From IMG/VR virus record IMGVR_UViG_3300042291_000844, positions 128,001 to 192,000 of that record: DNA of 64,000 nt. One strand, given 5' to 3'. Of this stretch, positions 4,738 through 29,894 are shown piece after piece. Made by a program: the position numbers and the translations under genes. Under the pieces are notes generated by a model. That model did not search any database. It was not told where the DNA came from and was given only the letters and a program-made list of their open reading frames with translations. The stretch comes from a virus. Its lineage: Duplodnaviria > Caudoviricetes. Numbering within the stretch: the first letter of the stretch is position 1; each line of letters opens with the position of its first letter.

Positions 4738-5382
4738 TTATATTAGGGATTTTGAAAATGGAATGGTATTACTTTCATTTTTAATAAATTCTGAGTAGGG
4801 TTTCCAATCTATTCCCCTTTGAATGTATTGTAACTCTGCATTACATCTACTTTCAATATCAACATTACTTATATCTATTGTTTTAGAATAGTGTCCGGTC
4901 ATCCACCAAAAATTACCAGAGTACATTATATTTGTAGGATTACTTACTGTTTCTAATAAAACACCATAGGTATTAAACGTATTGCTATTTAAAACATTAA
5001 ATACATTATCAATATACTGAATATTGTATAATTGCATCACATTTCTCCATCGGATGGATTCGGAATCCATTTGTTTGGTTACTCCCTTTGTGTGTAGGTA
5101 AAAAATATAATCATTATTATTAAATGATTGTTTATCTTTTTCTATTAAATTTAATGTTACAAATTCATTACCCATTAATTTAATATCACCAATTATAATT
5201 TTTGAATCATATTCATAAATTAATTTGATTATATCATCTACTGAATTATTATTTTCTGATATTGAGATACCAATAGTTAATGAGTATGGTTGATTAATAT
5301 ATTTTTTTATTAATGCAAGTTGTTCATGTATTATAGATTCAACCCCCTCTATTGCATAGATGTGATAATATATCCGTATCAT
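4738..5382 (-). CDS. Hypothetical, glycosyltransferase-like phage protein
   Basis: YYHIY, FYLHTKG, YSGNFWW, R..AE motifs; ends KSLI. Confidence 0.6.
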   Translation of the reverse strand: MIRIYYHIYAIEGVESIIHEQLALIKKYINQPYSLTIGISISENNNSVDDIIKLIYEYDSKIIIGDIKLMGNEFVTLNLIEKDKQSFNNNDYIFYLHTKGVTKQMDSESIRWRNVMQLYNIQYIDNVFNVLNSNTFNTYGVLLETVSNPTNIMYSGNFWWMTGHYSKTIDISNVDIESRCNAELQYIQRGIDWKPYSEFIKNESNTIPFSKSLI

Positions 5383-6425
5383 ATTAAATTCGTATGGGTA
5401 GTATCAATAAATTCGTATAGGTTATGAAATAGATTTGTATTTCTACCTATCTTATTAAATTCTTTTTTAAATAATTCATGTTCTGGGTGATTAGAATCCC
5501 AAACTTGTTTTAATTTAAATTCCGCTTCAGAAAATGTTCCCCAATTAGTTATTTTACCAAAAAAAACATTTACCTTTTTGCCAAAAATAGAATACATTAT
5601 ATTATAAAAGGTTTCCATTTCCATATAGTTACTATCTTGAACAACAAACGAAGTTTTTACCCATTGTAGTGTTTTTATTGTAGAAATAAAATTTAAATTA
5701 TTTATTAAGGTATCCCATTTACCACCCAATCTTGTTTTGTTTTCATATGTATCACGTGTTCCCGCATCTATTGATATTTCGCAACTTGTTACATACTTAT
5801 GAACATTTGGCATACTATCCCACATTTCCTTTGTCCACATTGAGGCATTAGTATGTAAATGTATTCTTGTTAGTTTTGGATATTTTTTTGGATTAAAATT
5901 TTTTAAATAATTTCTAAACCCAACCGAAACGAATGGGTCACCCGTACCTGTAATATATAAAGTTTTTACGTTTGCTGAATAATGGGTATCAATTTCATCT
6001 ATTGTTTTTTCAATTCGTTCTATGCCTTTACTACTTTCAACAATTAAATCTACCCTACACGATGGACATTTATAATTACAAGTCCTATCAAAATTCATTA
6101 AAATTCTGGTCGGTGTAGTCGGTTCAACAATTGGAGTTGTATACTTTGAATTTGATTTTAATGTAATTGGACCGGATACATCTCCATATTTTAATAATCT
6201 ACTTAAATATGGACACAATTCTTTGTTACAATATTTAAACGAACCATCTAAAATAGAATTTCTAATATCTAAAATAGGTTCACTATTAAAAGCATCTTTT
6301 AATGGAATTTCATTAAGTTTAATTTCGTTTGGTAACCACGATGGACAACAAACAAAACCAACATTATTATGTATTTCTAATGATGTAAACGGAACACTAC
6401 AACTATATTGTTTTAAATCTATCAC
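5379..6425 (-). CDS. Radical SAM protein with N-terminal SPASM/twitch-like Cys cluster
   Basis: CNYKCPSC (CxxxCxxC), TGTGDPF, ISIDAG, N-terminal C..P...CC...C...CP; ends TNLI. Confidence 0.9.
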   Translation of the reverse strand: MIDLKQYSCSVPFTSLEIHNNVGFVCCPSWLPNEIKLNEIPLKDAFNSEPILDIRNSILDGSFKYCNKELCPYLSRLLKYGDVSGPITLKSNSKYTTPIVEPTTPTRILMNFDRTCNYKCPSCRVDLIVESSKGIERIEKTIDEIDTHYSANVKTLYITGTGDPFVSVGFRNYLKNFNPKKYPKLTRIHLHTNASMWTKEMWDSMPNVHKYVTSCEISIDAGTRDTYENKTRLGGKWDTLINNLNFISTIKTLQWVKTSFVVQDSNYMEMETFYNIMYSIFGKKVNVFFGKITNWGTFSEAEFKLKQVWDSNHPEHELFKKEFNKIGRNTNLFHNLYEFIDTTHTNLI

Positions 6426-7078
6426 TATATCAATCCATTTATTTTTTTATCTAATCTTACTTTTTTGTAAGGCGAATTAATCCATTCATCAATACAAAAT
6501 TGATTATATTTTATCTTACAATATTCATTTAAACGTTTTATCGTTTCAATATCTTTATCAACAAATATATCTTCATAATAAAATAATGGGTATCCTTTAT
6601 TCGAGATAGATTTCAGAATCAGAGATTGGGATTCTAAATGACTAGTTAATCCTACTATATGATGTTCATCTAATTCATTTAAATCATAATACTTAGGTTT
6701 ATGCCAGTATGGAGAAACTGTTCTATTTTTTGATAATCTAATATGATAAACCAACGATTCGGCTTGTAATCGTTTATCCTTTCTTTCTAATACTATTATT
6801 TTATCAAAAAAAGAATAGAACCAATCCCAATATTCTTCTACATTTTTAAAAGATTCATATGGATAATTATCACTATCTATAAATGTTTTTAATAATACAT
6901 TTTTTTTATTTGTTATAGTATCATATGTTTTTAGTTTGTCGTCTCTATCCGGATTTATAAAATTAAATGGTTCAAAAAAAGTATTATATTTTTTGTGTTC
7001 TTTAGTTAAACAACAATTTAAATAATAAAATATTGAGGTGGAGCCACTCCTACCATTACACACAATTGCAATCCTCAT
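6425..7078 (-). CDS. Sulfotransferase-like P-loop protein
   Basis: GRSGSTS, FFEPFN, LERKD..QAES, YYED; ends NGLI. Confidence 0.7.
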   Translation of the reverse strand: MRIAIVCNGRSGSTSIFYYLNCCLTKEHKKYNTFFEPFNFINPDRDDKLKTYDTITNKKNVLLKTFIDSDNYPYESFKNVEEYWDWFYSFFDKIIVLERKDKRLQAESLVYHIRLSKNRTVSPYWHKPKYYDLNELDEHHIVGLTSHLESQSLILKSISNKGYPLFYYEDIFVDKDIETIKRLNEYCKIKYNQFCIDEWINSPYKKVRLDKKINGLI

Positions 7079-7593
7079 ATAATATTAAATTTTGACTGTT
7101 TTTTTGAAAACCATATAACTAAAACATCTCTCTTACCTGATGTTACTTTTTTAATTTCATGTATATCTTTTCCACCATTAAATACAACATAATCTCCTTC
7201 ATTTTTTAACGATACGCTTTCATCATTTATATACATTTCGCCACCTGTAAAATCGGATGACAATAAAATACTGACGGTCTTGTGTGTTGTAAATCTATCT
7301 TTATGTTTTTTAGCATAACCATTTTCACCATATATTAATCTATGCATTATGTATAAATTATCAATAGGTTCTTCAAATTTATTACAAATAAATTTATTTA
7401 AATTTTTATTTTCTAAAGTATAAACCCAACTATTATCTGGAAAAAGAGAGACACCATCATCTTTTTTAAGATGTGTGGCAAAATATAATTGAGGATGGGA
7501 TGCTTTTATATATGCTAAATCATCTTCATTCATTATTCGGGTAGTATCTAATTCAGATTTTAAAAAACCTAAATCATCGATTGATAGTTTCAT
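7075..7593 (-). CDS. 2OG-Fe(II) oxygenase
   Basis: HKD...FTGGE...H..KKV.SGKR; ends FNII. Confidence 0.85.
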   Translation of the reverse strand: MKLSIDDLGFLKSELDTTRIMNEDDLAYIKASHPQLYFATHLKKDDGVSLFPDNSWVYTLENKNLNKFICNKFEEPIDNLYIMHRLIYGENGYAKKHKDRFTTHKTVSILLSSDFTGGEMYINDESVSLKNEGDYVVFNGGKDIHEIKKVTSGKRDVLVIWFSKKQSKFNII

Positions 7594-8222
7594 ATGATTT
7601 TATTTATTTTATTCTTAAATTCTACAATTGGTTCATCTACATTTAAAAATTTATGTAATTTAATATAAAAATCATAACAACCTCGTGCACCAGGATGCCA
7701 ATCTATTACATCGCCACCTTCATCTGCAATAGAAGTTACTTTTATTAATTCTACAAACTTTTTTGTTTTTTCATAAAAATCATCGTTCCAGGTCACAAAA
7801 ATTGGTTCATATTTTTTATAAAAATATTTTAATTTTTTAATAAATAATATTTCAGAATCCCTATCCCCATTATACCAATGTTCAGTTTCTTTGACCCTTA
7901 GTTCTAATAGTTTTTTAGCAAACGATTTATCACTATACCATTCCCAATTTAAATATTTTAAGTTGTGATTTGTATCTCTTTCCCCAAAATATCTTCGTGG
8001 GAATCTACCGGGTGCAGTAAAGACTATAACTAATCTATCACCTTCTACATAATTTGGTATATTTCCAGTTTGATATAATATAGAATTATTATCAGACCCA
8101 AATTTTCCCAATTTAATAATATTATAATGATTAGATAAATAGTCTGTCCAGTGTGTTTCTGGTAAATCCCAATCTACAAAACTATCACCACAAATGTATA
8201 TGTTATTTTTTTTGGTTAACAT
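7590..8222 (-). CDS. SGNH/GDSL-like hydrolase or acyltransferase
   Basis: GDSF, G..N, DWHP; ends NKII. Confidence 0.75.
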   Translation of the reverse strand: MLTKKNNIYICGDSFVDWDLPETHWTDYLSNHYNIIKLGKFGSDNNSILYQTGNIPNYVEGDRLVIVFTAPGRFPRRYFGERDTNHNLKYLNWEWYSDKSFAKKLLELRVKETEHWYNGDRDSEILFIKKLKYFYKKYEPIFVTWNDDFYEKTKKFVELIKVTSIADEGGDVIDWHPGARGCYDFYIKLHKFLNVDEPIVEFKNKINKII

Positions 8223-8788
8223 TATATAATAGTTTTATTTGATTTTAATTTAGGATAATCAAAATCAGTTTCTGTCATCCAAATATTTAATGCGTACCTT
8301 ATCCCGTTGGTTACCGGTAAAACCCCATGGTATGTATCAGACCCATTAAATGAAATACTATCACCTAATTTTAAATCACACAATGTCAGACCAGTTAGTG
8401 TTTCAAAATCATAAGGAGGATTCACATCTTCAGTTAAAGCAAATTGTCCACCGATAAAATTATCAGAAAGAACAATTACTGTAGTTAATTCGCTTGATTT
8501 ATCCTTATGTAGATTAAGATATCTACCATCATAATATGAAGTTAGACTGATATTAAAATTCTTTAAATTAAATGATAGGTAATCAAACCATAATTTAAAG
8601 TTTCCGTTTTTATAATTATCGGTTAATAAATTAATTATTCTTTTTTTAAATTCTTCATCATACATTCTTCTACAATCCCAATGTTCGGTTGAACTATATG
8701 AAAAGGGTTCACCAAATTTAAGACAAAAATTAATTATATCGTTGGCGGTTTCTCTATTACAAAAATTATTATTTATGGTATAATTCAT
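8222..8788 (-). CDS. 2OG-Fe(II) oxygenase (prolyl-4-hydroxylase-like)
   Basis: LHKD, FIGGQ, YHGVLPV..GIRYALNIW; ends KTII. Confidence 0.85.
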   Translation of the reverse strand: MNYTINNNFCNRETANDIINFCLKFGEPFSYSSTEHWDCRRMYDEEFKKRIINLLTDNYKNGNFKLWFDYLSFNLKNFNISLTSYYDGRYLNLHKDKSSELTTVIVLSDNFIGGQFALTEDVNPPYDFETLTGLTLCDLKLGDSISFNGSDTYHGVLPVTNGIRYALNIWMTETDFDYPKLKSNKTII

Positions 8789-9606
8789 AATAGATGTGAT
8801 TTTTTTGGTTTATTATATACTAATAAATTGCCGTTATTTATAAATTTATATAATTCATCGGCAATTAATTTATATCCATTATTGCTTGGATGTTTACCTG
8901 CTGTAGTACTTATCCAATTATTACCATCCTCCCATACATCTTTTCTATTAGTATCAATTAATAAGTTTGCCATTGTTTTATTTTGATAACCCCAATATTT
9001 ATCACTCTCTATTAAATCGGTTTTATCAACTAACTTATGGATATTTCTATTAATCATTATATCAAACGCGTCACAAAAAAGATATCTGATTCCTAATTCT
9101 TTAAATATAAATTGAAGATGTAAAATATAGTTTTGATTCACTATATCATAGTAAGTATCATTGAATAAATTACCTATGTAATAATCTCTAAAATTTTTCT
9201 CCGCCCTATTATAGTTTATATTATCACTATTAACTCCATCAAAAATATATTTTAAAAGGTGTTCTTTACTTTTATATCGTTTGCCCCAAATAAAAAAATC
9301 ATCTTCAGTAGGGAAAAAAGGTAATGAATCCCGTAAAGATGATGACCACATAATAACAACAAAATCATCTTGAGTGATGATTTCGTTTTTTAATTGATAC
9401 GATACTGCGTTAAATATTGCATTATTTGAAAATGCCCCAACTCCATTATTTTTAACTTCACATTTTAATAGTTCTGATAAGTGTTTAGGCCAACAATATT
9501 TTTGTCTTATTAGTGTTCTTTGTTCAAAATCATCCGTACTATATTCATCTTCAACATTTCCACCAACCCCCTCAGTCCAACTATCTCCAAATGTAAACAA
9601 TTTCAT
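8785..9606 (-). CDS. SGNH/GDSL-like hydrolase or acyltransferase
   Basis: FGDSWTEG, G..N..I, KHPS..GY; ends SHLL. Confidence 0.8.
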   Translation of the reverse strand: MKLFTFGDSWTEGVGGNVEDEYSTDDFEQRTLIRQKYCWPKHLSELLKCEVKNNGVGAFSNNAIFNAVSYQLKNEIITQDDFVVIMWSSSLRDSLPFFPTEDDFFIWGKRYKSKEHLLKYIFDGVNSDNINYNRAEKNFRDYYIGNLFNDTYYDIVNQNYILHLQFIFKELGIRYLFCDAFDIMINRNIHKLVDKTDLIESDKYWGYQNKTMANLLIDTNRKDVWEDGNNWISTTAGKHPSNNGYKLIADELYKFINNGNLLVYNKPKKSHLL

Positions 9607-9617
9607 AATGCATAATA

Positions 9618-9761
9618 TTAAAGATGTGTTTCTTTAATTTTAGCTACAAGTTCTTGAAATGCAGTTGATATTTTTGTTTTTACAACGGTCGATAATGGAG
9701 CAATAACTGTCTTAATAACTGTTAATGGTCTTTCTTCTCTAATTTTTGGTGTCTTTGCCAT
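9618..9761 (-). CDS. 47-aa basic amphipathic peptide
   Basis: MAKTPKIREERPLTVIKTVIAPLSTVVKTKISTAFQELVAKIKETHL; not in ORF track. Confidence 0.6.
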   Translation of the reverse strand: MAKTPKIREERPLTVIKTVIAPLSTVVKTKISTAFQELVAKIKETHL

Positions 9762-9796
9762 AATATTTTTTTATTTTAATTTAAATTATATACTAA

Positions 9797-11287
9797 TTAT
9801 AGTTTGGGTGGTGGTATTCCCTGGTCACAGGTTGGACAAAAAGGAGCACAACCATACCCACCACAATAATAAGAACCACAACCCCAACAACTATTATGCA
9901 TTACACTAAATATTCCATCTCCAATATCCACTAAGAATAAATCGCCGGGTGCAAAATCTAATGAATATATTGTTTTGTATTCAAACACCATTTCTAAATT
10001 TGTAATTGTAATTGTTGTTAATTCATTTGTATTTATATCAGTTACAACTAATTTATCTCCAACATATAAACTATTTACTTTTTCAAATCTAGTTGCGGTT
10101 GAATCTTTTTCTTCAATATAATATGTACATCCAGGTGCATCTGTCCAAGTTTTACCATCTTCTAATGTTATTTTTATCATAATCACTTCTGCCGATTGCG
10201 ATACCATACCTATTAATTCAGATTGTAATGATGTTAATGTATCATTTGATTGTTGTAACGTACTATCCCAACCATATGTCACAATTTCATTTGTAAAAGA
10301 TTTAGCTTCATTTTCATTTGAATCTACAAAATTTATAGAACGAATATAATCGCCTAATTGTATGGTGGTAACATTTGTTAATGTACCATCGTAGTTTAAG
10401 ATATTTGAATCATCATCGGTATGATAATCACTCTCAGTTTTACCTATTTCTTTTGTAATATATTTATATCTTGTTTTTTGATTTAATTTTTTGGTGCCAG
10501 TAACAAATTCATCAGCGGTAAACGAAATCGGTATTATTGAAGATTGTGTGTATCCACCCATATTAATAATATCTAAATTTGAACCATATATAATATCAAT
10601 TCCTCTTATAATTGAGTATCTACCGTCTACCAAATTATCTTCTGAAAATATAAATTCTTGAATTAAATAATTACTTTCAGCTGAGTTTATTGTATCATTT
10701 AATTCAGTATTATTTGAAACTGTATATAATGCGGGGTATTGTGTTCCATCATATTGGGGATAACGATACTTTATTAATAGGTTTGGATTTGTAGTAGTGG
10801 TATAATCTACTTCATCTAATGTATTTAAATTTAACGTATCAGATGTATACTTTGTTTTTGGAATATACTCTGAATCTTTCATTAAATTAAAAAATTCAAA
10901 TTTATCAGCACAATACGTTTCATCTACTAATGCAGTTGTATCAAATGCTTGTCTTAAAATAAATTTAGTATCAGTATCTTCTATAAATGGTACAGTAACC
11001 GAACCCGCTGGTACAATATGGCCAGTATACGTTATATTATTTTCTGCACATTTTTCTTGTAATATTTGTAGAAATCTATGTGGTTGATTTAATGGTTTGA
11101 ACGCATCACCTTCCGTCCATATATAATGGAACTCAGTAATATTATTAGCATTTAACATATCAAATAACGTAGTGTAATCTAATAAATCAGCACCCTCATT
11201 ATAAATTGTGGTATTTGTATTTATTTCTAAAAACTTAACCGAACCATTTTTTTGTAGATAATCACTACCAATTATTGTTGCTTTCAT
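9797..11287 (-). CDS. Circularly permuted ATP-grasp + Hint domain + Cys-rich C-terminal peptide
   Basis: N-terminal GSD...LEINTNT; DKFEF...IPKT; LIQEFI; Hint-like DG...IQLGDYI, LEDG, LYVGDKL, YSL...HN followed by SCWGC... Confidence 0.7.
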   Translation of the reverse strand: MKATIIGSDYLQKNGSVKFLEINTNTTIYNEGADLLDYTTLFDMLNANNITEFHYIWTEGDAFKPLNQPHRFLQILQEKCAENNITYTGHIVPAGSVTVPFIEDTDTKFILRQAFDTTALVDETYCADKFEFFNLMKDSEYIPKTKYTSDTLNLNTLDEVDYTTTTNPNLLIKYRYPQYDGTQYPALYTVSNNTELNDTINSAESNYLIQEFIFSEDNLVDGRYSIIRGIDIIYGSNLDIINMGGYTQSSIIPISFTADEFVTGTKKLNQKTRYKYITKEIGKTESDYHTDDDSNILNYDGTLTNVTTIQLGDYIRSINFVDSNENEAKSFTNEIVTYGWDSTLQQSNDTLTSLQSELIGMVSQSAEVIMIKITLEDGKTWTDAPGCTYYIEEKDSTATRFEKVNSLYVGDKLVVTDINTNELTTITITNLEMVFEYKTIYSLDFAPGDLFLVDIGDGIFSVMHNSCWGCGSYYCGGYGCAPFCPTCDQGIPPPKL

Positions 11288-11314
11288 AAATGTTTATTTT
11301 TTTCTGGATGTACC

Positions 11315-11323
11315 TATAAATAT
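11315..11323 (-). promoter_or_regulatory. Candidate late-promoter motif ATATTTATA(G)
   Basis: Directly upstream of the ATP-grasp-Hint gene. Confidence 0.5.
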
Positions 11324-11347
11324 ATTAAAATTGAATTTAAGACCATT

Positions 11348-11650
11348 TTAAATAATACTAGGATTTTTTTTAATTTCAAGTGGTTCTAAATAATTAGAAT
11401 CAACTTCATTCCATTTTTTTAATCCACATGCATTATAAGTTGTTGAAAATACTTTTTTATTCAATGGACACCCACATTCACCACAATACGCACTCCATTT
11501 TAATCCTTTTATTACTTCTTTTCTATAATCACACCCTAAACAAACATCAAGTCTTAATTTAGCTAATTCCTCTTGTTTTGGTGTGGGGTTTAAAGAAATT
11601 TTCCAAGCATCAAATATTTCTTTATAATTAATTATAGGTTTAGGTATCAT
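11348..11650 (-). CDS. Small Cys-rich protein (DUF6171-like)
   Basis: R...CLGC...CGECGC.L.KK......C...KW; ends PSII. Confidence 0.7.
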   Translation of the reverse strand: MIPKPIINYKEIFDAWKISLNPTPKQEELAKLRLDVCLGCDYRKEVIKGLKWSAYCGECGCPLNKKVFSTTYNACGLKKWNEVDSNYLEPLEIKKNPSII

Positions 11651-11651
11651 A

Positions 11652-12389
11652 TTATATTAATGTTTTATTATTTTTTTGAATATCGTAATAATCATAAATA
11701 TCATTATATTTTTTGATGAAATCATCATTCATTTTTAAATTACAATCAAAATGTTGACTTCCATTTAAGTTTTCCATTTTAAATGGTTTATCTGTTTTAT
11801 TAGATACCCATTCCTCTAATTCTGTAAAATTTCCAAATTCAAACCATTTTATTTTTGGGTTATTATTATGCCAAAATGATATTGGCCTGAATAATATTAA
11901 TAACATATTTTCCAGATAATCGTCCAAATACTTTTGAATTCCATTTCTTTTTGCAAATTCTTTAATTACTAAAATTTGAGAAGTTAGTGATATTAAATCT
12001 AAATCTTTAAAAAATAATATATCATCCATATTTAATTTTTTTAGTATATTTACTAATTCGTTTGGATATTTTAGATGTTCCATTTCGACCATATCAATTA
12101 TATGTTTCCATAATGAAATAAATCGTTCATATCTATTTCGTTTAATTGTTATGATATCATACTCATTCCCAAATTTTAATAGTAATAAATCTAATCTTTC
12201 GTGAAGATGTACCATATTATCTGCGAGCGATTCATTACTCAAAGTTAAATTAATGGGTATATGGTAATTATCTACAAATGATTGGTCAAAATGTTCAATT
12301 TTAAATCCACTTCTTAAACATGATATATAAAATGAAGTGGATGCACATCTTGGTAATGATATAAATAAAAATTTATTCTCTACTAACAC
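11652..12389 (-). CDS. Sulfotransferase family protein
   Basis: ISLPRCASTS (5'-PSB-like), RNRYERFIS (3'-PB-like); ends KTLI. Confidence 0.75.
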   Translation of the reverse strand: MLVENKFLFISLPRCASTSFYISCLRSGFKIEHFDQSFVDNYHIPINLTLSNESLADNMVHLHERLDLLLLKFGNEYDIITIKRNRYERFISLWKHIIDMVEMEHLKYPNELVNILKKLNMDDILFFKDLDLISLTSQILVIKEFAKRNGIQKYLDDYLENMLLILFRPISFWHNNNPKIKWFEFGNFTELEEWVSNKTDKPFKMENLNGSQHFDCNLKMNDDFIKKYNDIYDYYDIQKNNKTLI

Positions 12390-13027
12390 TATATTAACGA
12401 TTTTTGGTTTTTAATAAAATCAAATCCAACATTACCTGCCATAACAATTCTATCTAAGGTTGATTCCGATGCACTATGTGGTGAATGGGGCATATCTGCC
12501 TCCATTATAATTAAATCATCTTCTTCCGGCATTATCCAATATTCCGTATTATCTTTTCCTTTAAAACATAATACCCCATCATCACCATTCATTACATCTG
12601 GCATTTGAATATAATAAACGTATGTATAATGTGGAATAAAGTCTTTATTTTTTTTATTAATTTCAGTATGTATATGATATTTTTCATCATTATAAAACTC
12701 TTCTTGTACTGGATTTTTAGAACGAACAACGTTGACCCAAGCATCTGTATTAATCTTATTATAATTTATACCGGTTTCATTATAAATTTCTTTACATTTA
12801 TTAATACCAATTTGAATTATTTCATCTAATTTTGTTTCTACCTTAATATCACCAATAAAATTTAAATGTTCATTCCATTCTTTTTTATAACCAAACCCAT
12901 CAGTTTTAACATTAGGCTGGGATTCTATAATAGAATATGCCTCTTTTAAAAACAATTGTTTATCACTTATTCGATTTAATTTTACTTTCCAAATATAAGT
13001 TGTCTCATCAAAAAATATCTTTTCCAT
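12389..13027 (-). CDS. Putative 2OG-Fe(II) oxygenase
   Basis: HIH, YTYVYY, G.L.F, PH, RIVMAGN; ends KSLI. Confidence 0.7.
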   Translation of the reverse strand: MEKIFFDETTYIWKVKLNRISDKQLFLKEAYSIIESQPNVKTDGFGYKKEWNEHLNFIGDIKVETKLDEIIQIGINKCKEIYNETGINYNKINTDAWVNVVRSKNPVQEEFYNDEKYHIHTEINKKNKDFIPHYTYVYYIQMPDVMNGDDGVLCFKGKDNTEYWIMPEEDDLIIMEADMPHSPHSASESTLDRIVMAGNVGFDFIKNQKSLI

Positions 13028-13033
13028 AATTTT

Positions 13034-13639
13034 TTATATTAAAGTAGTTTGGGTTTTAAGGTATTTTTTATTTATATCTAAAAAATAAAAATTAGAACAA
13101 AACACAATCCGTTCAGTATTTGAGTTTATATTAGTTTCTGCACGATGTAACAAATTTGCATCAAATATTAATAAATCACCTACGTTTGGTAAGATTGAAA
13201 ATTCTTCGCCATTTTCATCTTTAAATATTAAATGTCCTTCTTTGTCATTTAAATTATTTGGCATTTTACTATAATAAGTTAATGTATAATCTGGTGTTTG
13301 TTTTATAAAACTTGTTGATATTTTTGAATTATGTCTATGAAAACCGGAATAACTATTATTATTTTTACTAATAAAAATCCATTCATTTGTATTATAAAAA
13401 AATGGTTTGTTAACTAAGTAAAACATAGAGTCTATGATATTCTGTCTAACAATATTTATATTTTTAGAATTTACTTGCACATACGATTGTATACCAGGTG
13501 TTTCTGGGGTTGGGTGACTTACATTCTGACTAATTTCAATAGAATACCATAATTCTTTTGATAATTGTTCATTATCTATTCCTTCTATGCGTTTTCTATA
13601 TATAATTATATTTTCACCTAATTTTATTTCCTCTAACAT
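13034..13639 (-). CDS. Putative 2OG-Fe(II) oxygenase
   Basis: FHRH, GHLIF, P..GDLLIF...LLH, RIVFCSN; ends TTLI. Confidence 0.75.
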   Translation of the reverse strand: MLEEIKLGENIIIYRKRIEGIDNEQLSKELWYSIEISQNVSHPTPETPGIQSYVQVNSKNINIVRQNIIDSMFYLVNKPFFYNTNEWIFISKNNNSYSGFHRHNSKISTSFIKQTPDYTLTYYSKMPNNLNDKEGHLIFKDENGEEFSILPNVGDLLIFDANLLHRAETNINSNTERIVFCSNFYFLDINKKYLKTQTTLI

Positions 13640-13645
13640 ATTATA

Positions 13646-14281
13646 TTAATTTAGTTTTTTATAAAATATATCAGCTAATTCTTTATGACCTACTTCAGAA
13701 AAATGGGCATCGTTAATTACGCCATTAGTTTCATCTTGTAATCTATTTAATAAAGTTCCCACATACCAATCTGTTGGTAGTAATTGTTTTTTAAGATGAA
13801 CATCAGTACATAAAGCAAAGGGTGACCAAAAAATAACTTTAATGCCTTTTAATTTAAATATAGTACTAAGTAATTTAGACCAATTAACTATTTCATCCCA
13901 ATATAACCTACTCATTCTATTAATCCGAATTTGCTCTAATGTATTGATATCGATAAATTTATACGATTCTAACTCTGAAACTGAATTTCTGATAGTACTC
14001 CATTTATTATTTTTTTCTAACCTAAAACGAGATGGTTCTGTCCAACCTATAATAACAATATCTCTAGTATTGATAGAATCTATGTTAGTAATGATAGACT
14101 CAAAGATAGTATTATTATCAACACCCCCATTACCACATTGGTTAACTTCCATATCTAGCATTGTAGATAGGTAGTGAGAAAATATTTTTGGTTGATATCC
14201 TTTGTATTCTTTATATTTAATACCCAATCCATACATCTTTTCCCATGTTGTAGAAAACGAATCACCAAATACCCAAATCAT
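13646..14281 (-). CDS. SGNH/GDSL-like hydrolase
   Basis: FGDSFS, G..N..I, IIGWT...R, DAHFS..GH. Confidence 0.75.
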   Translation of the reverse strand: MIWVFGDSFSTTWEKMYGLGIKYKEYKGYQPKIFSHYLSTMLDMEVNQCGNGGVDNNTIFESIITNIDSINTRDIVIIGWTEPSRFRLEKNNKWSTIRNSVSELESYKFIDINTLEQIRINRMSRLYWDEIVNWSKLLSTIFKLKGIKVIFWSPFALCTDVHLKKQLLPTDWYVGTLLNRLQDETNGVINDAHFSEVGHKELADIFYKKLN

Positions 14282-14877
14282 AAAAGATTTTGTTTTGTTG
14301 AATTTGTTTTAACTAATGACACCCAATTTACTAATGAATACCTAATCCCATTCACTACTGGCGTTACTCTATGCAGTAATCTTGAATTAAAAATATATAA
14401 TGTCCCAATTTTATTTTCTATTGGTACAATCTCACCTTTAATGTTTTTTATTTCTAATAGACCGCCTTCGTATGCATTGTTTAACTGAATTACTATTGAT
14501 GTAAATCTATTTCTATATATGGTACCAGTACTATCGGTATGCCAATCAAAGTACTCACCTTCTTTATACTCAGTAAATTGAAATGGTCCAAGTCCCGTAA
14601 CTTCCATACCATTTATATTAAAGGTTTTTCTTAATTTATTTGTTAATCTGTCATTTAAAAATTCTAAATTAGATATCCAGCCAATCGATGATTTTCTATT
14701 TGTTTTATTATGTGGAGTATTAGAATCATCACCATATACTTTAGCATCTGATAATGATAATTCATTTTTACATTTGTTTAAAAGCAACTCACACTCTTCG
14801 GGTGATAGGAAATTTTCAAATATGTCTATATTGTCAATCATATATATAAATATATAAATAATAAAAAAAAGGGTCAC
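14278..14877 (-). CDS. PKHD-type 2OG-Fe(II) hydroxylase
   Basis: FDWHTD, YEGG.LE, LHRVTPV..GIRYSLVNW; ends QNLL; true start probably MIDNID. Confidence 0.9.
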   Translation of the reverse strand: MTLFFIIYIFIYMIDNIDIFENFLSPEECELLLNKCKNELSLSDAKVYGDDSNTPHNKTNRKSSIGWISNLEFLNDRLTNKLRKTFNINGMEVTGLGPFQFTEYKEGEYFDWHTDSTGTIYRNRFTSIVIQLNNAYEGGLLEIKNIKGEIVPIENKIGTLYIFNSRLLHRVTPVVNGIRYSLVNWVSLVKTNSTKQNLL

Positions 14878-24886: not shown

Positions 24887-24908
24887 TAATTTATGAGGTT
24901 TTTTATAG

Positions 24909-24982
24909 TGGACCAGATAGGATTCGAACCTATGACCTCAACATTATGAGTGTTTTGCTCTAACCAACTGAGCTACAAGTCC
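24909..24982 (-). tRNA. tRNA-CAT (Ile2-like or Met)
   Basis: Cloverleaf, loop CTCATAA, Ile2-like 5' arm. Confidence 0.85.
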
Positions 24983-25035
24983 ATTATCGTTTAATCTAAC
25001 GATAAAATCTGATATCGTTTCTTTCAACGATAAAA

Positions 25036-25063
25036 AATAAGCAGGTGTGGAATCACCTACTTA
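25036..25063 (-). terminator. Intrinsic terminator-like hairpin
   Basis: TAAGTAGGTG...CACCTGCTTA then T tract. Confidence 0.55.
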
Positions 25064-25120
25064 TATAGTGAATGAGAAACATATGAATCTCTTGCGGCTA
25101 TATCACCAAAGCCCATAAGG

Positions 25121-25234
25121 TGCCGGAGGAAGGATTGGTTACCTACACGATTTCCTTACGGAGTAATCAACTTTTTACAAAGTCACGTCTCAAGGTTTAC
25201 TACCCAAAGGGAATGCTCTTTCCGCCACTCCGGC
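25121..25234 (-). ncRNA. Aberrant tRNA-like RNA (114 nt)
   Basis: Perfect GCCGGAG/CTCCGGC acceptor stem, expanded D region, GTA-containing hairpin, non-canonical T loop. Confidence 0.55.
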
Positions 25235-25250
25235 ATATATCTTTTTTTTG

Positions 25251-25324
25251 TGGAGGATATCGGAGTCGAACCGATGACCCTCTGCGTGCAAGGCAGATGC
25301 TCTAGCCAACTGAGCTAACCCCCC
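25251..25324 (-). tRNA. tRNA-Ala(TGC)
   Basis: Cloverleaf, G3:U70. Confidence 0.95.
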
Positions 25325-25337
25325 ATAAAATTTAACG

Positions 25338-25423
25338 TACCAGAGGTGGGAGTCGAACCCACACGAGCGATTTATGCTCAATAGATTTTAAGTCTATCGT
25401 GTCTACCATTCCACCACTCCGGC
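25338..25423 (-). tRNA. tRNA-Leu(TAA)
   Basis: Class II cloverleaf. Confidence 0.95.
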
Positions 25424-25439
25424 ATTTATTCTAATTATC

Positions 25440-25874
25440 CTAATTTAGTTTACTTAATATTACCCCATTAAGTTTAGTATGATTATCATCTGGATTTATT
25501 AATATATCGATTTTATTTTTCCATCGCGGATTCATTAAATCCCTAACGTAGTAAACTCCATTGTATTTTCCAGCATTTGACACTCTTACTTTTTCACCAA
25601 ATTTAAATTTCTTTTTTATATCTCTACTTACTGCAATCACTCTATGTTTTTTAGGATTATCCTCATCTAATTCAAAGCCACTAGCCGTTTCTAACGGAGT
25701 ATCATCAGTTTGTAAAGGGTCAATTGTATATGTAGTCATCGTAACAACAAATTTCTTAATTTCCTTAACAACCTCTTCCTTTACCATAGTTTCGATTTTG
25801 AATGGATTGGGTGGGGTTACATTTGATGGTAGGATTACCGCAGTAATTAATAATATCAATATTAATCTTTTCAT
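25440..25874 (-). CDS. 3D-domain (MltA-like) secreted protein
   Basis: Signal peptide; T.Y...QTDDTP..TASG; IAVSRD; V.D; IDI. Confidence 0.8.
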   Translation of the reverse strand: MKRLILILLITAVILPSNVTPPNPFKIETMVKEEVVKEIKKFVVTMTTYTIDPLQTDDTPLETASGFELDEDNPKKHRVIAVSRDIKKKFKFGEKVRVSNAGKYNGVYYVRDLMNPRWKNKIDILINPDDNHTKLNGVILSKLN

Positions 25875-25913
25875 AATTTACATTTATGGTTAATAATAAC
25901 TATTACACTTTTG

Positions 25914-25987
25914 TGATTCGGAAAGGATTCGAACCTTTGGCCTATTCATTAGAAGTGAATTGCTCTATCCAACTGAGCTACCGAACC
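25914..25987 (-). tRNA. tRNA-Arg(TCT)
   Basis: Cloverleaf. Confidence 0.95.
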
Positions 25988-25991
25988 ATTG

Positions 25992-26065
25992 CGGACTGTA
26001 CGGGACTCGAACCCGTGAACTCCACCGTGACAGGGTGGCATGATAACCAACTTCACCAACAATCC
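25992..26065 (-). tRNA. tRNA-Asp(GTC)
   Basis: Cloverleaf, G73. Confidence 0.95.
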
Positions 26066-26183
26066 AAATTTTCGGAACTTATGGATTTTCGCCACCAAAA
26101 TCTCTTTTCTCAATTGGCCTCATTGAGTGAGTGTTATCGCGTAATTCGTCATTCCTAATCTAAGGTAATTAATCTTAGATTTG

Positions 26184-26256
26184 AGCCTCCTATCGGAATC
26201 GAACCAATGACCTACTGATTACAAATCAGTTGCTCTACCTGCTGAGCTAAGGAGGC
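26184..26256 (-). tRNA. tRNA-Thr(TGT)
   Basis: Cloverleaf. Confidence 0.95.
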
Positions 26257-26265
26257 TTATGTTTG

Positions 26266-26337
26266 TACTCCCAACGGGATTCGAACCCGTATTACTACCG
26301 TGAAAGGGTAGTGACCTAACCATTAGTCGATAGGAGC
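26266..26337 (-). tRNA. tRNA-Glu(TTC)
   Basis: Cloverleaf. Confidence 0.95.
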
Positions 26338-26356
26338 ATATAATTTTATAACAATG

Positions 26357-26388
26357 TAAAGATACGAAGAATATTCCACATATCCAAA
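26357..26388 (-). promoter_or_regulatory. Bacteroidota-type promoter inside the tRNA array
   Basis: TTTG-N20-TATCTTTA. Confidence 0.7.
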
Positions 26389-26389
26389 T

Positions 26390-26851
26390 TTAATTGTGTA
26401 TTTTTACTAAGTGGTCAGCAGCATAAGTTGCTATTGGCCCTAATGATTTATATCTTACTGAATACCCCATACCTTCAACCATACCCACTGCTTGTCTAAA
26501 CACTTCGTTAGATTTAAAGCGTGGGTCTGGGTTCAAGTCAATATCAATCCACTTAGGTTTTGGAATACCAGCCTCGCGTAATTCTTCGGCAGTTTCAATT
26601 GCAAACCAAACTTCTTGTAATAATCTAACTGAACGGATTCTTTCTCTTTCACTATTCCATCTTCTATACAATACATGTGCACCCTTTCCTTTTCTATATA
26701 AGGCAACTACGATTGCATAAATAGTTTTGTTACCTGAATTTTGTGAATCACAACCAATTAAGATTTCTGCATCGGTATTCGTAATCATATATTCTTTGAT
26801 ATATGAAATCAATTCCACTTCTTCTGCCGTATACAATTTTTTATAAACCAT
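26390..26851 (-). CDS. RNase H-like YkuK/DUF458 family protein
   Basis: IGCDSQ, RL..EV..AI..A, IDIDLN, K......AADH. Confidence 0.85.
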   Translation of the reverse strand: MVYKKLYTAEEVELISYIKEYMITNTDAEILIGCDSQNSGNKTIYAIVVALYRKGKGAHVLYRRWNSERERIRSVRLLQEVWFAIETAEELREAGIPKPKWIDIDLNPDPRFKSNEVFRQAVGMVEGMGYSVRYKSLGPIATYAADHLVKIHN

Positions 26852-26871
26852 AATTTTACCTTTTTATTTTG

Positions 26872-26946
26872 TACCCATAGTAGGACTCGAACCTACAATT
26901 GTGTGGTGTCTAAAGCCACTGCGTATTCCAATTCCGCCATACGGGT
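26872..26946 (-). tRNA. tRNA-Leu(TAG) with short variable region
   Basis: Leu-type D arm, loop TTTAGAC, about 6 nt variable loop. Confidence 0.75.
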
Positions 26947-26955
26947 ATATTTCAG

Positions 26956-27041
26956 CAGAGAGTGAGGGGCTCGAACCCTCGCGGCTTTAACACCCTAACG
27001 ATTTAGCAAACCGTCCCCTTCACCAACTTGGGTAACTCTCT
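26956..27041 (-). tRNA. tRNA-Ser(GCT)
   Basis: Class II cloverleaf, G73. Confidence 0.95.
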
Positions 27042-27043
27042 AT

Positions 27044-27120
27044 TGGGGTGATTAATGGGATTCGAACCCATACTATCAGTACCACAAACTGACGTGCTGA
27101 CCATTAACACTATAAACACC
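27044..27120 (-). tRNA. tRNA-His(GTG)
   Basis: G-1:C73, CCA encoded. Confidence 0.95.
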
Positions 27121-27126
27121 ATATGT

Positions 27127-27195
27127 TGCGTGTTTGAGGTTTGAACTCAATTGGTCATCCTTATGAGAGATAACTCTTTTCCACTAAGCCACGCA
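27127..27195 (-). tRNA. Divergent tRNA-CAT (Met-like)
   Basis: Loop CTCATAA, good T arm, weak D arm. Confidence 0.55.
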
Positions 27196-27200
27196 ATGTG

Positions 27201-27272
27201 AGGCGGGTATTGGATTCGAACCAATGTTAAAGGTTTTGCAGACCTCCTCCTAACCACTCGAGACAACTCGCC
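27201..27272 (-). tRNA. tRNA-Cys(GCA)
   Basis: Cloverleaf, U73. Confidence 0.95.
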
Positions 27273-27337
27273 ATTATTTGTTGTTCACTTTTTTTGTTTG
27301 TTCACCGATAGTGAACACTCTAAATTTGTGAACATTG

Positions 27338-27410
27338 TAGTTCCATAAGGACTCGAACCCTAACTTTTTCATCCGTAGTGAAAGGTGCTATCCAATTACA
27401 CCATAGAACT
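27338..27410 (-). tRNA. tRNA-Arg(ACG)
   Basis: Cloverleaf. Confidence 0.9.
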
Positions 27411-27416
27411 ATTTTG

Positions 27417-27487
27417 CACCCCCTGAAAGATTCGAACTTTCATCTGCGGTTTTGGAGACCGATATGCTACCATTGCACCAAAGAGAT
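27417..27487 (-). tRNA. tRNA-Trp(CCA)
   Basis: Cloverleaf. Confidence 0.9.
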
Positions 27488-27585
27488 AATTAATCAAGAA
27501 GATAGCCAGAAATTAGTGACGTCAAATCTCTTTAAGCTATATGAACTATCTTCTTGTTAGGATTGGTTAATTACTCCAATCTTCG

Positions 27586-27659
27586 TTGGTAATGCGGGAT
27601 TCGAACCTGCCACCTTCTCGGTATCAGCGAGATGCTCTAACCAAATGAGCTAATTACCA
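27586..27659 (-). tRNA. tRNA-Ile(GAT)
   Basis: Cloverleaf. Confidence 0.95.
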
Positions 27660-27721
27660 ATTTTCCTCACTTCTCCGGCTTATTGGACCGGATGCCATAT
27701 AGGGAGTGTGAGGAAACTCCG

Positions 27722-27797
27722 TAGGGTAAGCAGGATTCGAACCTGCGTGCTCTTCGTCCCAAACGAAGCGAGATAAACCGGACTCCTCTATTACCCT
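27722..27797 (-). tRNA. tRNA-Pro(TGG)
   Basis: Cloverleaf. Confidence 0.95.
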
Positions 27798-27803
27798 ATG
27801 TTG

Positions 27804-27877
27804 TGAACCCGAATGGACTCGAACCATTGACTCCCTCATTAAAAGTGAGGTGCTCTAACCAACTGAGCTACGGATTC
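27804..27877 (-). tRNA. tRNA-Lys(TTT)
   Basis: Cloverleaf. Confidence 0.95.
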
Positions 27878-27882
27878 AATTG

Positions 27883-27955
27883 TGGGACCTAATGGAATCG
27901 AACCATTTCCTTTGGATTTTCAGTCCAACGTACGCACCAGCTATACCAAAGCCCC
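27883..27955 (-). tRNA. tRNA-Phe(GAA)
   Basis: Cloverleaf. Confidence 0.95.
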
Positions 27956-27961
27956 TAATTG

Positions 27962-28043
27962 TGAGAGTAGAAGGACTCGAACCTCCGAACTCGAATGAGA
28001 ACTGATTTACAGTCAGTTGCAATTGCCGCTATGCGATACTCCC
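27962..28043 (-). tRNA. tRNA-Tyr(GTA)
   Basis: Class II cloverleaf. Confidence 0.95.
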
Positions 28044-28048
28044 AATTG

Positions 28049-28122
28049 TAGAAGATATAGGATTCGAACCTATGACCCTTTGGATGTAAACCAAATGCTC
28101 TAACCAACTGAGCTAATCTTCT
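28049..28122 (-). tRNA. tRNA-Val(TAC)
   Basis: Cloverleaf. Confidence 0.95.
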
Positions 28123-28127
28123 ATGTG

Positions 28128-28199
28128 TTACTCGAATAGGATTCGAACCTATACTACATCAGTCAAAGTGAGGTATGCTAACCATTACACCATCGAGCA
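28128..28199 (-). tRNA. tRNA-Gln(TTG)
   Basis: Cloverleaf, U1:A72. Confidence 0.9.
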
Positions 28200-28206
28200 A
28201 TTTATG

Positions 28207-28278
28207 AGCGGATGATAGGAATCGAACCTACGTCTCCTACTTGGAAGGAAGGAGTAATAACCATTATACGACATCCGC
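28207..28278 (-). tRNA. tRNA-Gly(TCC)
   Basis: Cloverleaf. Confidence 0.95.
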
Positions 28279-28280
28279 AT

Positions 28281-28290
28281 GTCAAAGAAC
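28281..28290 (-). promoter_or_regulatory. boxA-like antitermination element GTTCTTTGAC
   Basis: Located after the first tRNA of the array; related copies at 29567, 29881 and 31278. Confidence 0.55.
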
Positions 28291-28296
28291 CAATTG

Positions 28297-28368
28297 AGGG
28301 AAGGGAGAATTTCGAAATCTCGACCTGATGATTAACAGTCATCTGCTCTGCCTCTGAGCTACCATCCC
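28297..28368 (-). tRNA. tRNA-Asn(GTT)
   Basis: Cloverleaf; first tRNA after the terminator. Confidence 0.9.
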
Positions 28369-28374
28369 ATAAAC

Positions 28375-28409
28375 GAAAAAACCCTTAACTTTTTTATCAG
28401 TTAAGGGTT
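28375..28409 (-). terminator. Intrinsic terminator (candidate attenuator) directly before the tRNA array
   Basis: AACCCTTAACT-loop-AGTTAAGGGTT followed by a T tract. Confidence 0.85.
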
Positions 28410-28439
28410 CTTAAAATATTGTTATAAAATTTTTACATT

Positions 28440-28562
28440 CTATCCACGTTTTACATCCCTTAACTTACTTCTATCCTCAATCATATTGAAGACACGATTG
28501 CCACCCCAAGCACATTTCTGTGTCGGTAGATAACTAAGCGTATGTATTGTTAAAGTTGCCAT
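28440..28562 (-). CDS. 40-aa leader peptide containing all 20 amino acids; overlaps antiterminator at 28457-28466
   Basis: MATLTIHTLSYLPTQKCAWGGNRVFNMIEDRSKLRDVKRG; below ORF-track length cutoff. Confidence 0.75.
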   Translation of the reverse strand: MATLTIHTLSYLPTQKCAWGGNRVFNMIEDRSKLRDVKRG

Positions 28563-28721
28563 TGTGTATAAGTATATTAAAAACTAATTTATGTTTGTTT
28601 TTGTGTTAATAAAATAAAAAAAAGTAACTCATCTTCAATATGCACCATCCATGTCATGCACTGGTTGACAAAAGCCTCGATAAATTACTTAATATTTTTT
28701 AAAAAAAAATCTGGATGAGAA

Positions 28722-29570
28722 TACTCCATCTTGTGAACCAGCTTTATAAGGGTTATTGGTTACCTTAATTTCCACTACCTTTTGAGTAGTACCGATTCAA
28801 TGTGGGTAAGTAATGCCTACCAATCATAAAGTTACAACCTACTCTCTTTTTACTCCGCCACTTCGAATCTGCCGACCCGATTCACACCTCGCGATGCTAG
28901 AAGTTTTTCGAAAGAATCACATTTACCTTGAGAGTATTTGTGGCAGTGAACGACTCACTACTATGTACACACCTTTCACTTGCAACTGGTAACCACTTTT
29001 TCTTTTATTTTTATTTGATTTTCACCATTGAAAGTAAAAGTTTTGGTTTGTAGAAGAATTCAAGTAGTGGATTACCACTAGCTCCGTTCCATTTTGAAGA
29101 ACGGAATACTATACTACTCGATACGATATCCCTATCGTCATATTTTAAGTCCACTTCATATCTAAACCTTTGGTAAGGTAAAGATAAGGATAATAACAAC
29201 ACCACTTGTACATCATCTTACCTTTCGATTTTAAGTAAACTTTCATATTGAATCACGCAATGATATGGAGAGATTAAGTCCGTACTTCTTGCAATAACTC
29301 TATGGATTATTCTTATTGGTGTCCCCACCTCAACTGAACTTCTACCTAGCCCAGTCATTAAACCATTTCACTACGGAGTTACCCTCACTAATCAGGTCTA
29401 ATGATATTCCACTTGCATACTCAAGCTCCATTCCTTTCGGTCTGAAACCGCAAATTAATTAACCAACTAATTCACTTTATCCTACTTTCGTAGTTTATTT
29501 AACCACCATATGCGGCGGGTATGTACTATGTACCACAAGGATACTATGTACAATATGTTTCGATAATTTA
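28722..29570 (-). ncRNA. Large ornate ncRNA, GOLLD-like (~850 nt)
   Basis: No credible ORF, many hairpins, raised GC, own promoter and boxA, adjacent to tRNAs; family assigned by size and context only. Confidence 0.55.
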
Positions 29571-29591
29571 AAGAACTTTTTTTTGTTAAGT

Positions 29592-29623
29592 CAAAGATAC
29601 GAAATCTTTTTCACTTTTCCAAA
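29592..29623 (-). promoter_or_regulatory. Bacteroidota-type promoter for the large ncRNA
   Basis: TTTG-N20-TATCTTTG. Confidence 0.8.
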
Positions 29624-29697
29624 TTTATTTTAAACTTTTTTTTGTTATGTCTAATACCGAGTATCTTTCATCGCCTTTAAGTTTAGAACTAACTTTG

Positions 29698-29729
29698 TAA
29701 AGATACGAAAACATTTTCACATTTCCAAA
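29698..29729 (-). promoter_or_regulatory. Bacteroidota-type promoter
   Basis: TTTG-N20-TATCTTTA. Confidence 0.75.
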
Positions 29730-29801
29730 TCTTTTTTTAATTATTTTTTGTGATATTATATATAAGTATATAAAAATATACCAAACGTAAAATAATCATT
29801 G

Positions 29802-29873
29802 TAGCGGGTGAAGGATTCGAACCTCCGACCTATAGGTTATGAGCCTACCGAGCTACCACTGCTCTAACCCGCA
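29802..29873 (-). tRNA. tRNA-fMet(CAT), initiator-like
   Basis: 1:72 mismatch, TAGAGCAGTGGTAGCTCG D arm, loop CTCATAA. Confidence 0.9.
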
Positions 29874-29894
29874 ATATAATTTTAAAGAACATAA

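Follow-up and report, generated by a model that had tools for sequence, protein, structure and literature searches.

A common Leu-Ile tail at the C-termini of unrelated tailoring enzymes in a gene island of giant lake phages

Why should a row of neighbouring genes for unlike enzymes end in the same pair of aliphatic residues? This question is raised by an island of about 10 kb (positions 4738-14877) in the DNA of an uncultured giant lake phage. The DNA studied, called the window below, is a stretch of 64,000 nucleotides (nt), positions 128,001-192,000 of the IMG/VR record IMGVR_UViG_3300042291_000844 (Caudoviricetes). The island consists of 14 tightly packed genes, all on the minus strand, and it is the most AT-rich part of the window, with a GC content of 27-28% as compared to 30-38% elsewhere. 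An earlier note on this DNA had listed twelve proteins of the island that end in two residues, each Leu or Ile ([LI][LI]), and had proposed that this end is a docking or addressing signal. Our analysis indicates that the motif exists, that it is selected as a peptide, exposed and phage-specific, and that it separates tailoring enzymes from supply enzymes.

The tail in the window

All twelve listed tails were present in the sequence exactly as given; the number of open reading frames (ORFs) in the island, given as 15 in the earlier note, was 14 genes on recount. That is, 12 of 14 genes end in [LI][LI]. In order to judge this count, we used the frequency of internal [LI][LI] dipeptides in the island's proteins, which is 2.7% and gives a probability of 1.2e-17 for at least 12 of 14. 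A nucleotide-only control, in which stops in any frame after two Leu/Ile codons were counted, gave 8.2% in the island; for the window and a relative of 335 kb the value was 5.4-5.6%. On this basis the probability of 12 of 14 was 7e-12. Outside the island, 8 of the 90 ORFs of the same window end in [LI][LI] (Fisher P = 6e-9). The frequency of the tail is far above the 3-8% to be expected by chance. The genes of the island are as follows (aa, amino acids; 2OG, 2-oxoglutarate; F numbers are our handles for families).

4738-5382, minus strand: 214 aa, F27, no family assigned; ends SKSLI (tail codons 4741-4752, stop TAA 4738-4740)
5379-6425, minus strand: radical SAM enzyme, 348 aa, F1, Pfam PF04055; ends HTNLI (tail codons 5382-5393)
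6425-7078, minus strand: 217 aa, F11, P-loop-like N-terminus, sulfotransferase-like by motif only; ends INGLI
7075-7593, minus strand: 2OG-Fe(II) oxygenase, 172 aa, F0, PF13640; ends KFNII
7590-8222, minus strand: 210 aa, F196, weak SGNH-like link (hhalign 76% to F18), no Pfam match; ends INKII
8222-8788, minus strand: 2OG-Fe(II) oxygenase, 188 aa, F0, PF13640; ends NKTII
8785-9606, minus strand: GDSL/SGNH-like protein, 273 aa, F24, weak matches to PF00657 and DUF6071; ends KSHLL
9797-11287, minus strand: untagged central protein, 496 aa, ATP-grasp-like N-half, Hint/bacterial intein-like (BIL) domain and Cys-rich peptide; ends PPPKL
11348-11650, minus strand: small Cys-rich protein, 100 aa, F4; ends NPSII, followed by a 60-nt gap
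11652-12389, minus strand: sulfotransferase-like by motif only, 245 aa, F2; ends NKTLI
12389-13027, minus strand: 2OG-Fe(II) oxygenase, 212 aa, F7, PF13640 below the cut-off; ends QKSLI
13034-13639, minus strand: 2OG-Fe(II) oxygenase, 201 aa, F7, PF13759; ends QTTLI
13646-14281, minus strand: SGNH-like protein, 211 aa, F18; ends YKKLN, with the tag one frame away
14278-14877, minus strand: 2OG-Fe(II) oxygenase, 199 aa, F0, PF13640 (E = 7.6e-14); ends KQNLL

The thirteenth candidate for the tail is thus the gene at 13646-14281. One extra A in its run of six A (A6) would give an end of ...KKTKLI-stop (window 13646-13665), and 10 of the 13 members of F18 end in [LI][LI], with tails including KNLI, KTLI, PELI, PTLI and LTLI; the exceptions are SIM, KMI and the copy in the window. 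The same A6 allele, with no indel at the run, was found in contigs of three lake-water runs (X1, X3, X5), a contig-based check that slippage and minor or rare A7 variants could escape. An assembly error at the run is therefore unlikely.

The earlier note had also reported the tail at three genes distant from the island. In two of them the tail is conserved among orthologs, as listed here; in the third (20782, RKLI) it is not, because four orthologs end KLQS.

50666-51832, minus strand: distal tagged gene, 388 aa, F33; ends KSLI, orthologs tagged 6/6
34467-35102, minus strand: distal tagged gene, 211 aa, F53; ends LELI, orthologs tagged 3/3

In the window, the first of these is separated from the island by 36 kb, yet in three related contigs (L039, L036, L015) it is part of the island. 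The second adjoins a gene for a 598-aa protein with a weak PHROG match to "radical SAM domain protein" and 23% identity to a Streptomyces-phage product annotated as B12-binding radical SAM. The genes at 60-64 kb, which were called SGNH paralogs in the earlier note, have no tail, as was stated there.

Conservation of the tail and the level of its selection

With the radical SAM gene as the query, we obtained 60 IMG/VR loci on contigs of up to 335 kb; the complete relatives are G001 (335 kb, 402 ORFs) and G005 (202 kb, 206 ORFs). On these 60 contigs, 472 of 1103 ORFs end in [LI][LI]. A BLAST family was called a tail family when at least 60% of its members carry the tail. Twenty-six families are tail families, and 44 families of at least three members are without the tail. 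The consensus is K-x-x-[KN]-[TSK]-L-I-COOH, or roughly Lys-Thr-Leu-Ile at the end. In the family-weighted logo, Lys occupies the seventh to fifth positions from the last and Lys or Asn the fourth, and the third from last is Thr (24%), Ser (23%) or Lys (22%). The penultimate residue is Leu in 74%, and the last is Ile in 68% or Leu in 23%; Val, Phe and Met are rare. In both G001 (33 tagged of 402 ORFs) and G005 (11 of 206), the tagged ORFs are concentrated in the tailoring islands, and elsewhere their frequency is that of the background.

Within the families of the window, the tail is kept as follows. It is present in 52 of the 56 radical SAM orthologs in the loci, in 49 of the 50 members of F2 and in all 20 members of F11, a family with no Pfam match and an hhalign link to F9. 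The 42 orthologs of F4 end KTII, KTLM, NTII or KTIL after linkers of differing length. In F27, to which the last gene of the island belongs, six of seven members end in [LI][LI] (KTLI, NKLI, KSLI) and one ends NKLV, and the length of the linker before the tail varies again.

Are the carriers really unrelated? Single-sequence Pfam searches left six carrier families without assignment. When the last six residues were removed and the carriers were compared profile to profile (hhalign), they formed 19 unrelated groups at a profile probability of at least 90%, or about 15 when weak links were accepted. The statement in the earlier note that the folds are unrelated is right in part: five of the twelve carriers in the window are 2OG-Fe(II) oxygenases, but the carriers still fall into these 15-19 groups.

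The tail also reaches beyond close relatives. All 119 full-length representatives of close radical SAM clusters end in [LI][LI], 100 of them in KTLI. Among representatives chosen at 50% identity, the tail can still be followed to about 37-55% identity, beyond which its frequency drops to the background level. A second deep lineage (56% identity of the radical SAM enzyme) has its own clusters of tagged genes, and in a marine lineage (L083) a lone tagged radical SAM gene lies between gp32 and a RecA-family gene (weak RecA_N match, possibly UvsX-like). These contexts of distant tagged radical SAM genes come mostly from short contigs. Of about 10 genes in a row that lie directly upstream of a tail sheath gene on another marine phage contig (L085:7-12258), at least seven are radical SAM/SPASM and about half are tagged.

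Bacterial homologs of the radical SAM enzyme share 26-43% identity with it, and a few belong to genomes with a GC content of 29-33%. The tail was found in 0 of 25 of them, and 6 of the 392 neighbouring ORFs end in [LI][LI]. An analogous tandem dioxygenase array of cyanophage Syn9 has been reported (Iyer et al. 2010, PMC2938197), and we found no common tail in it.

Searches with the radical SAM DNA and protein in 50,697 phage records gave no match, and the nearest PolB in cultured phages, that of Salinibacter phages, has 24% identity. There is thus no isolate or host to work with. One contig with a tagged radical SAM gene and a tagged 2OG oxygenase gene also encodes a TonB-dependent receptor with a CarboxypepD_reg domain (L086:16636-19353), together with QueC and PTPS genes, which hints at a host of the Bacteroidota type.

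A tail of two aliphatic residues before a stop codon could arise without any role of the peptide. It might be a nucleic-acid signal or a by-product, for example of ATGA or TAATG overlaps between genes, of an AU-rich initiation context, of a promoter-like TTAATATAA or of a scar of cassette recombination. Two features of the island are in line with such an origin: the last Ile is coded by ATA in 9 of 10 cases, which produces ATAT[AG]A, and overlap with the neighbour is frequent among these genes. The codons of the tail argue otherwise. Within families, Ser is coded by TCG, TCA, TCC, AGT and AGC, Thr by all four of its codons, Leu by TTA, TTG, CTA, CTT, CTC and CTG, and Ile by ATA, ATT and ATC, and all three stops are used. 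Orthologs of the gene at 12389-13027 use both TCN and AGY for the Ser third from the last. That is, the check on synonymous variation that the earlier note had called for gave varying codons and constant residues.

The junctions with the next gene point in the same direction. In tail families, 78-94% of the genes are tagged in every junction class, namely a 4-nt overlap, a 1-nt overlap, a gap of any length and no downstream gene, which bears out the earlier observation, made on genes such as that at 4738-5382 (the last of the island, with no downstream overlap), that the tail is kept where nothing overlaps it. The frequency is unchanged at gaps of more than 60 nt. In non-tail families, only 4-10% are tagged by junction class (overlapping genes 4-9%, ATGA overlaps 4%), the any-frame background is 5-8%, and the sequences downstream of the tails are unrelated to each other. 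As judged from these comparisons, a nucleic-acid explanation is extremely improbable and can be regarded as essentially excluded.

In the alignment of the radical SAM enzymes, the last two columns are conserved at 87% (Leu) and 96% (Ile) after columns at 33-76%, and the linkers ahead of the tail vary in length and sequence. In the AlphaFold2 (AF2) model of the radical SAM enzyme (mean pLDDT 91.5), residues 345-348, which are the tail, form the sole segment below 50; the tail is thus predicted to be disordered and exposed. The synonymous codons, the independence of the junction, the variable linkers and the lack of the tail in the bacterial homologs and the Syn9 array together indicate a peptide-level tag. 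On the evidence of the sequences, then, the tail is selected as a peptide, and neither ATGA overlaps nor AT-richness account for it.

Tagged and untagged enzymes and the possible reader of the tail

Which enzymes carry the tag? The carriers are radical SAM enzymes, several families of 2OG-Fe(II) oxygenases, sulfotransferase-like, SGNH-like and SDR-like proteins, small Cys-rich proteins and a sugar dehydrogenase. In the islands of relatives, the order of genes is carbamoyltransferase, adenosine phosphosulfate (APS) kinase, small nucleotidyltransferase (CTP_transf_like), DUF2061 membrane protein and ATP-grasp/Hint protein, all five untagged. The tagged enzymes come after the ATP-grasp/Hint protein, and large glycosyltransferases stand at the far end. 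A GT4-FkbM protein is a further untagged member. The tag marks the phage-specific tailoring enzymes and not the supply enzymes.

The two classes also differ in their conservation. Between G001 and G005, the untagged supply genes rank with the most conserved of all genes and are 76-81% identical as compared to a genome median of 48%, with 81% for the DUF2061 protein and 76% for the small nucleotidyltransferase (G005 188733-189279, G001 279653-280252), and the tagged enzymes are about 37-43% identical. In the same two lineages the radical SAM enzyme is 42% and the central ATP-grasp/Hint protein 24% identical. The DUF2061 protein, the small nucleotidyltransferase and APS kinase accompany the tagged radical SAM gene even on the distant contigs L084 and L086. 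The untagged APS kinases (F12; L013:4614-5051 and orthologs) have a conserved end of their own, K-L-x-[LI]-COOH (KLSL, KLTL, KLKI), which is spaced and unlike the L-I tag. A tag for the delivery of iron or a cofactor was considered and rejected, since iron is not required by over half of the families of carriers (sulfotransferase-like, SGNH-like, SDR-like, dehydrogenase).

We think that the tail probably serves docking or addressing at the level of the protein, with a single reader for all carriers. That is, it would be a short linear motif at a free C-terminus, preceded by a flexible linker, that many unrelated tailoring enzymes of the phage have gained by convergence. By holding the Leu-Ile-carboxylate end, the reader protein would gather, localise or hand over the tagged enzymes of a pathway of sulfation, hydroxylation, and glycan and peptide tailoring. 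We favour this explanation because selection of the peptide, its exposure, the variable linkers and the marking of tailoring but not supply enzymes are the pattern to be expected from it. To this extent the proposal of the earlier note is supported, and the binding by one reader is the part that we infer.

Several findings weigh against this explanation. The first is that no reader was found. PDZ_2 (PF13180) was absent from the records of the relatives G001-G003, and PDZ_6 (PF17820) and TPR_16 (PF13432) were absent from five relatives' records; the controls of the PDZ searches did match. Second, no ATP-grasp/Hint homolog lies within 10 kb of the tagged radical SAM gene on the distant contigs L083-L086 and L099-L101. 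For these phages, the central protein could thus be the reader only if its gene is found in another part of the genome. Third, the gene at 13646-14281 has lost its tag by a 1-nt deletion that is present in the contigs of all three runs, meaning that the tag is dispensable for at least one enzyme. Finally, a UDP-glucose/GDP-mannose dehydrogenase of G001, which is of the supply type, is tagged and ends TKSLL.

If a docking tag has a reader, the central protein at 9797-11287 deserves attention. It is the sole untagged gene of the island in the window apart from the frameshifted gene, and its orthologs carry the tail in 0 of 46 cases. Its Hint/BIL domain ends in an invariant His464-Asn465. The Cys-rich peptide behind it is hypervariable, measures 30-45 aa and in most cases has six Cys, and it could be released by cyclisation of the Asn. 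In the AF2 model (pLDDT 79), the Hint fold matches 1at0 (TMt 0.78). The N-half gave weak fold matches to YgiC/YjfC (TM about 0.3), and feature matches to the TTL, GSP_synth and YheCD ATP-grasp clusters with scores of 0.85-0.92, which serve as leads only. Polar residues of the protein, including an E-x-N motif, are invariant. In the second lineage (L092:4935, L094:2500, L102:5549), the same N-half occurs in the tag clusters and is followed by 1-3 tandem canonical BIL domains (Cys ... His-Asn), with no Cys-rich peptide. A complex prediction in which residues 1-465 were paired with the C-terminal 45 residues of the radical SAM enzyme, made without controls, scored 0.00 and counts neither way. Taken comprehensively, the central protein is a candidate reader, though an unlikely one. 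Other candidates are the phage Hsp20, the DUF2061 membrane protein and a host factor.

The same protein suggests a different role for the tail. The tail might be a substrate-recognition element for the ATP-grasp domain, whose reaction, a modification or a ligation, would take place at the C-terminal Ile carboxylate of each tagged enzyme. The untagged state of the central protein within the window's island and its co-occurrence with tag clusters in two deep lineages agree with this idea, as do its invariant polar residues and the resemblance of its N-half to TTL/GspS-type ligases, which activate the C-terminal carboxylates of peptides. However, the matches of fold and features are weak, several other lineages have no homolog near the tagged radical SAM gene, and the protein's own released Cys-rich peptide is equally possible as the target of a ligase. 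We consider such a modification decidedly improbable. A wider form, which we regard as rather improbable, is that the tag is a handle by which the TTL/GspS-like domain would recognise the C-termini of the enzymes, either tethering them non-covalently round the self-released Cys-rich peptide or ligating something to them. If this were true, the logic of peptides made on the ribosome and modified after translation (RiPPs) would be reversed; the precursor protein would carry the reader, and the enzymes would carry the leader-like tag.

Exposed non-polar C-termini are also read by bacterial proteases, as in the LAA end of ssrA and the RRKKAI end of MuA. We must therefore consider that the tail is a degron. 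An AAA+ protease of the host or the phage, such as ClpXP/ClpAP, Lon or FtsH, would then recognise it and keep the tailoring enzymes short-lived or limited to one phase of infection. The tail has the required form, being exposed, C-terminal and non-polar with basic residues before it. In addition, G001 encodes a Clp-type AAA+ ATPase beside Hsp20 and a true ClpP elsewhere (L066/L067, L071; 110005-110526, 111949-112218, 212668-213195), and the window contains a transfer-messenger RNA (tmRNA) gene at 30891-31266. But the unusually long 24-residue tag of this tmRNA ends ...GADYAIAA, that is, in YAIAA and not in LI. The complete G005 is tagged yet has neither ClpP nor an AAA_2 ATPase, which led us to reject a phage-encoded Clp as the universal reader. 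A degron would leave unexplained the exemption of the central protein and of the supply enzymes of the same operon, and the strict order of Leu then Ile is tighter than the known rules for non-polar tails. A degron is thus an unlikely explanation. The tmRNA gene stands in an array with 24 tRNA genes (window 24908-32296).

Hsp20, which was found by Pfam search in G001, G004 and G005, is encoded within or next to the tag cluster of G004, of G005 and of the window, and 170 kb away in G001. Its own tail does not resemble L-I-COOH but has an I-x-I motif.

A weak peripheral membrane anchor was weighed as well. Here the enzymes would be drawn by their Lys and their two aliphatic residues to the inner membrane, where lipid-linked glycan is assembled, with the DUF2061 protein possibly taking part. 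The positions seventh to fourth from the last are indeed rich in Lys before L-I, and the islands hold glycosyltransferases and the conserved DUF2061 protein with two transmembrane (TM) segments. However, two aliphatic residues anchor very weakly, and for this purpose Phe, Trp, Val and Met in any order would do as well, which does not agree with the predominance of Leu and Ile in the logo and the rarity of Phe, Val and Met. There is also no amphipathic periodicity upstream of the tail, and we judge an anchor to be very unlikely.

Significance of the tag and comparison with known systems

If the tail is a docking tag, a virus could keep an entire set of biosynthetic enzymes in order by simple means, with a label of four residues on about 15-19 unrelated superfamilies. 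The label is conserved across deep lineages of abundant uncultured giant phages of fresh and marine water, and it is found only in the phage copies. With it, members of the tailoring system can be recognised cheaply from sequence, also where their genes are tens of kb away from the island, as is the gene at 50666-51832. The tail peptide would also be an experimental handle on the hub, and so on the substrate of the islands. Should the hub be the ATP-grasp/Hint protein, the recruitment of enzymes to a ribosomal precursor would here follow a new route.

In the literature open to our search, we found nothing relevant on a common C-terminal tag of biosynthetic or phage enzymes. The tag was compared with the following known systems.

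The ssrA/tmRNA and MuA degrons, which are recognised by ClpX, resemble the tail in having an exposed non-polar C-terminus after polar or basic residues. They differ in that the tmRNA tag of this phage is YAIAA, in that the L-I tag is confined to one functional class, and in that the complete G005 is tagged without Clp genes.

The earlier note had likened the tail to ligands of PDZ or TPR domains. Ligands of PDZ class I ([S/T]-x-hydrophobic-COOH) are alike in the free carboxylate, in the aliphatic last residue and, for about 47% of family-weighted tails, in Ser/Thr third from the last. They differ in that here the penultimate residue is as conserved as the last, Lys is common third from the last and Val is rare at the end. 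Known bacterial PDZ proteins are mostly periplasmic. As about half of the tails have no Ser/Thr at that place, the likeness to a PDZ class I ligand is no more than a resemblance. The relatives' records contain no PDZ or TPR domain of the types searched.

A short hydrophobic C-terminal peptide on unrelated clients of one hub is also found in the clamp-binding tails of gp43, gp33 and gp55 in the T4 family and in the QL[SD]LF motif of the bacterial beta-clamp system. The likeness is partial ([ST]-L-[IL]-COOH as compared to [SD]-L-F). A clamp-binding tail was rejected, because the family-B PolB of G001 (965 aa) ends ...DYAFHAIEI and is untagged. The carriers look like enzymes of glycan or peptide tailoring and not of DNA. 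The search with gp45-slide_C in this test gave no match.

The cargo-loading peptides of encapsulins and the capsid-targeting sequence of T4 are, like the tail, short terminal tags on unrelated proteins in prokaryotes or phages. The encapsulin peptides have about 10 residues (of the Gly/Ser-Leu-x-Ile-Gly-Ser-Leu type), the capsid tag of T4 is N-terminal and cleaved, and both direct proteins to one protein shell. On inspection their consensus is unlike that of the tail, and the carriers here are biosynthetic enzymes.

Finally, we compared the tail with the peroxisomal targeting signal PTS1 (-[SAC]-[KRH]-[LM]-COOH, read by the TPRs of Pex5) and with KDEL/HDEL. The tag here differs from them, being K-[TS]-L-I and belonging to a phage in a bacterial cytoplasm without a known compartment, and TPR_16 is missing in the relatives. 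For PTS1 and KDEL a single receptor is known, and here one reader is what we would expect. In both cases, an exposed C-terminal signal of 3-4 residues has been acquired convergently by unrelated enzymes of one compartment or pathway.

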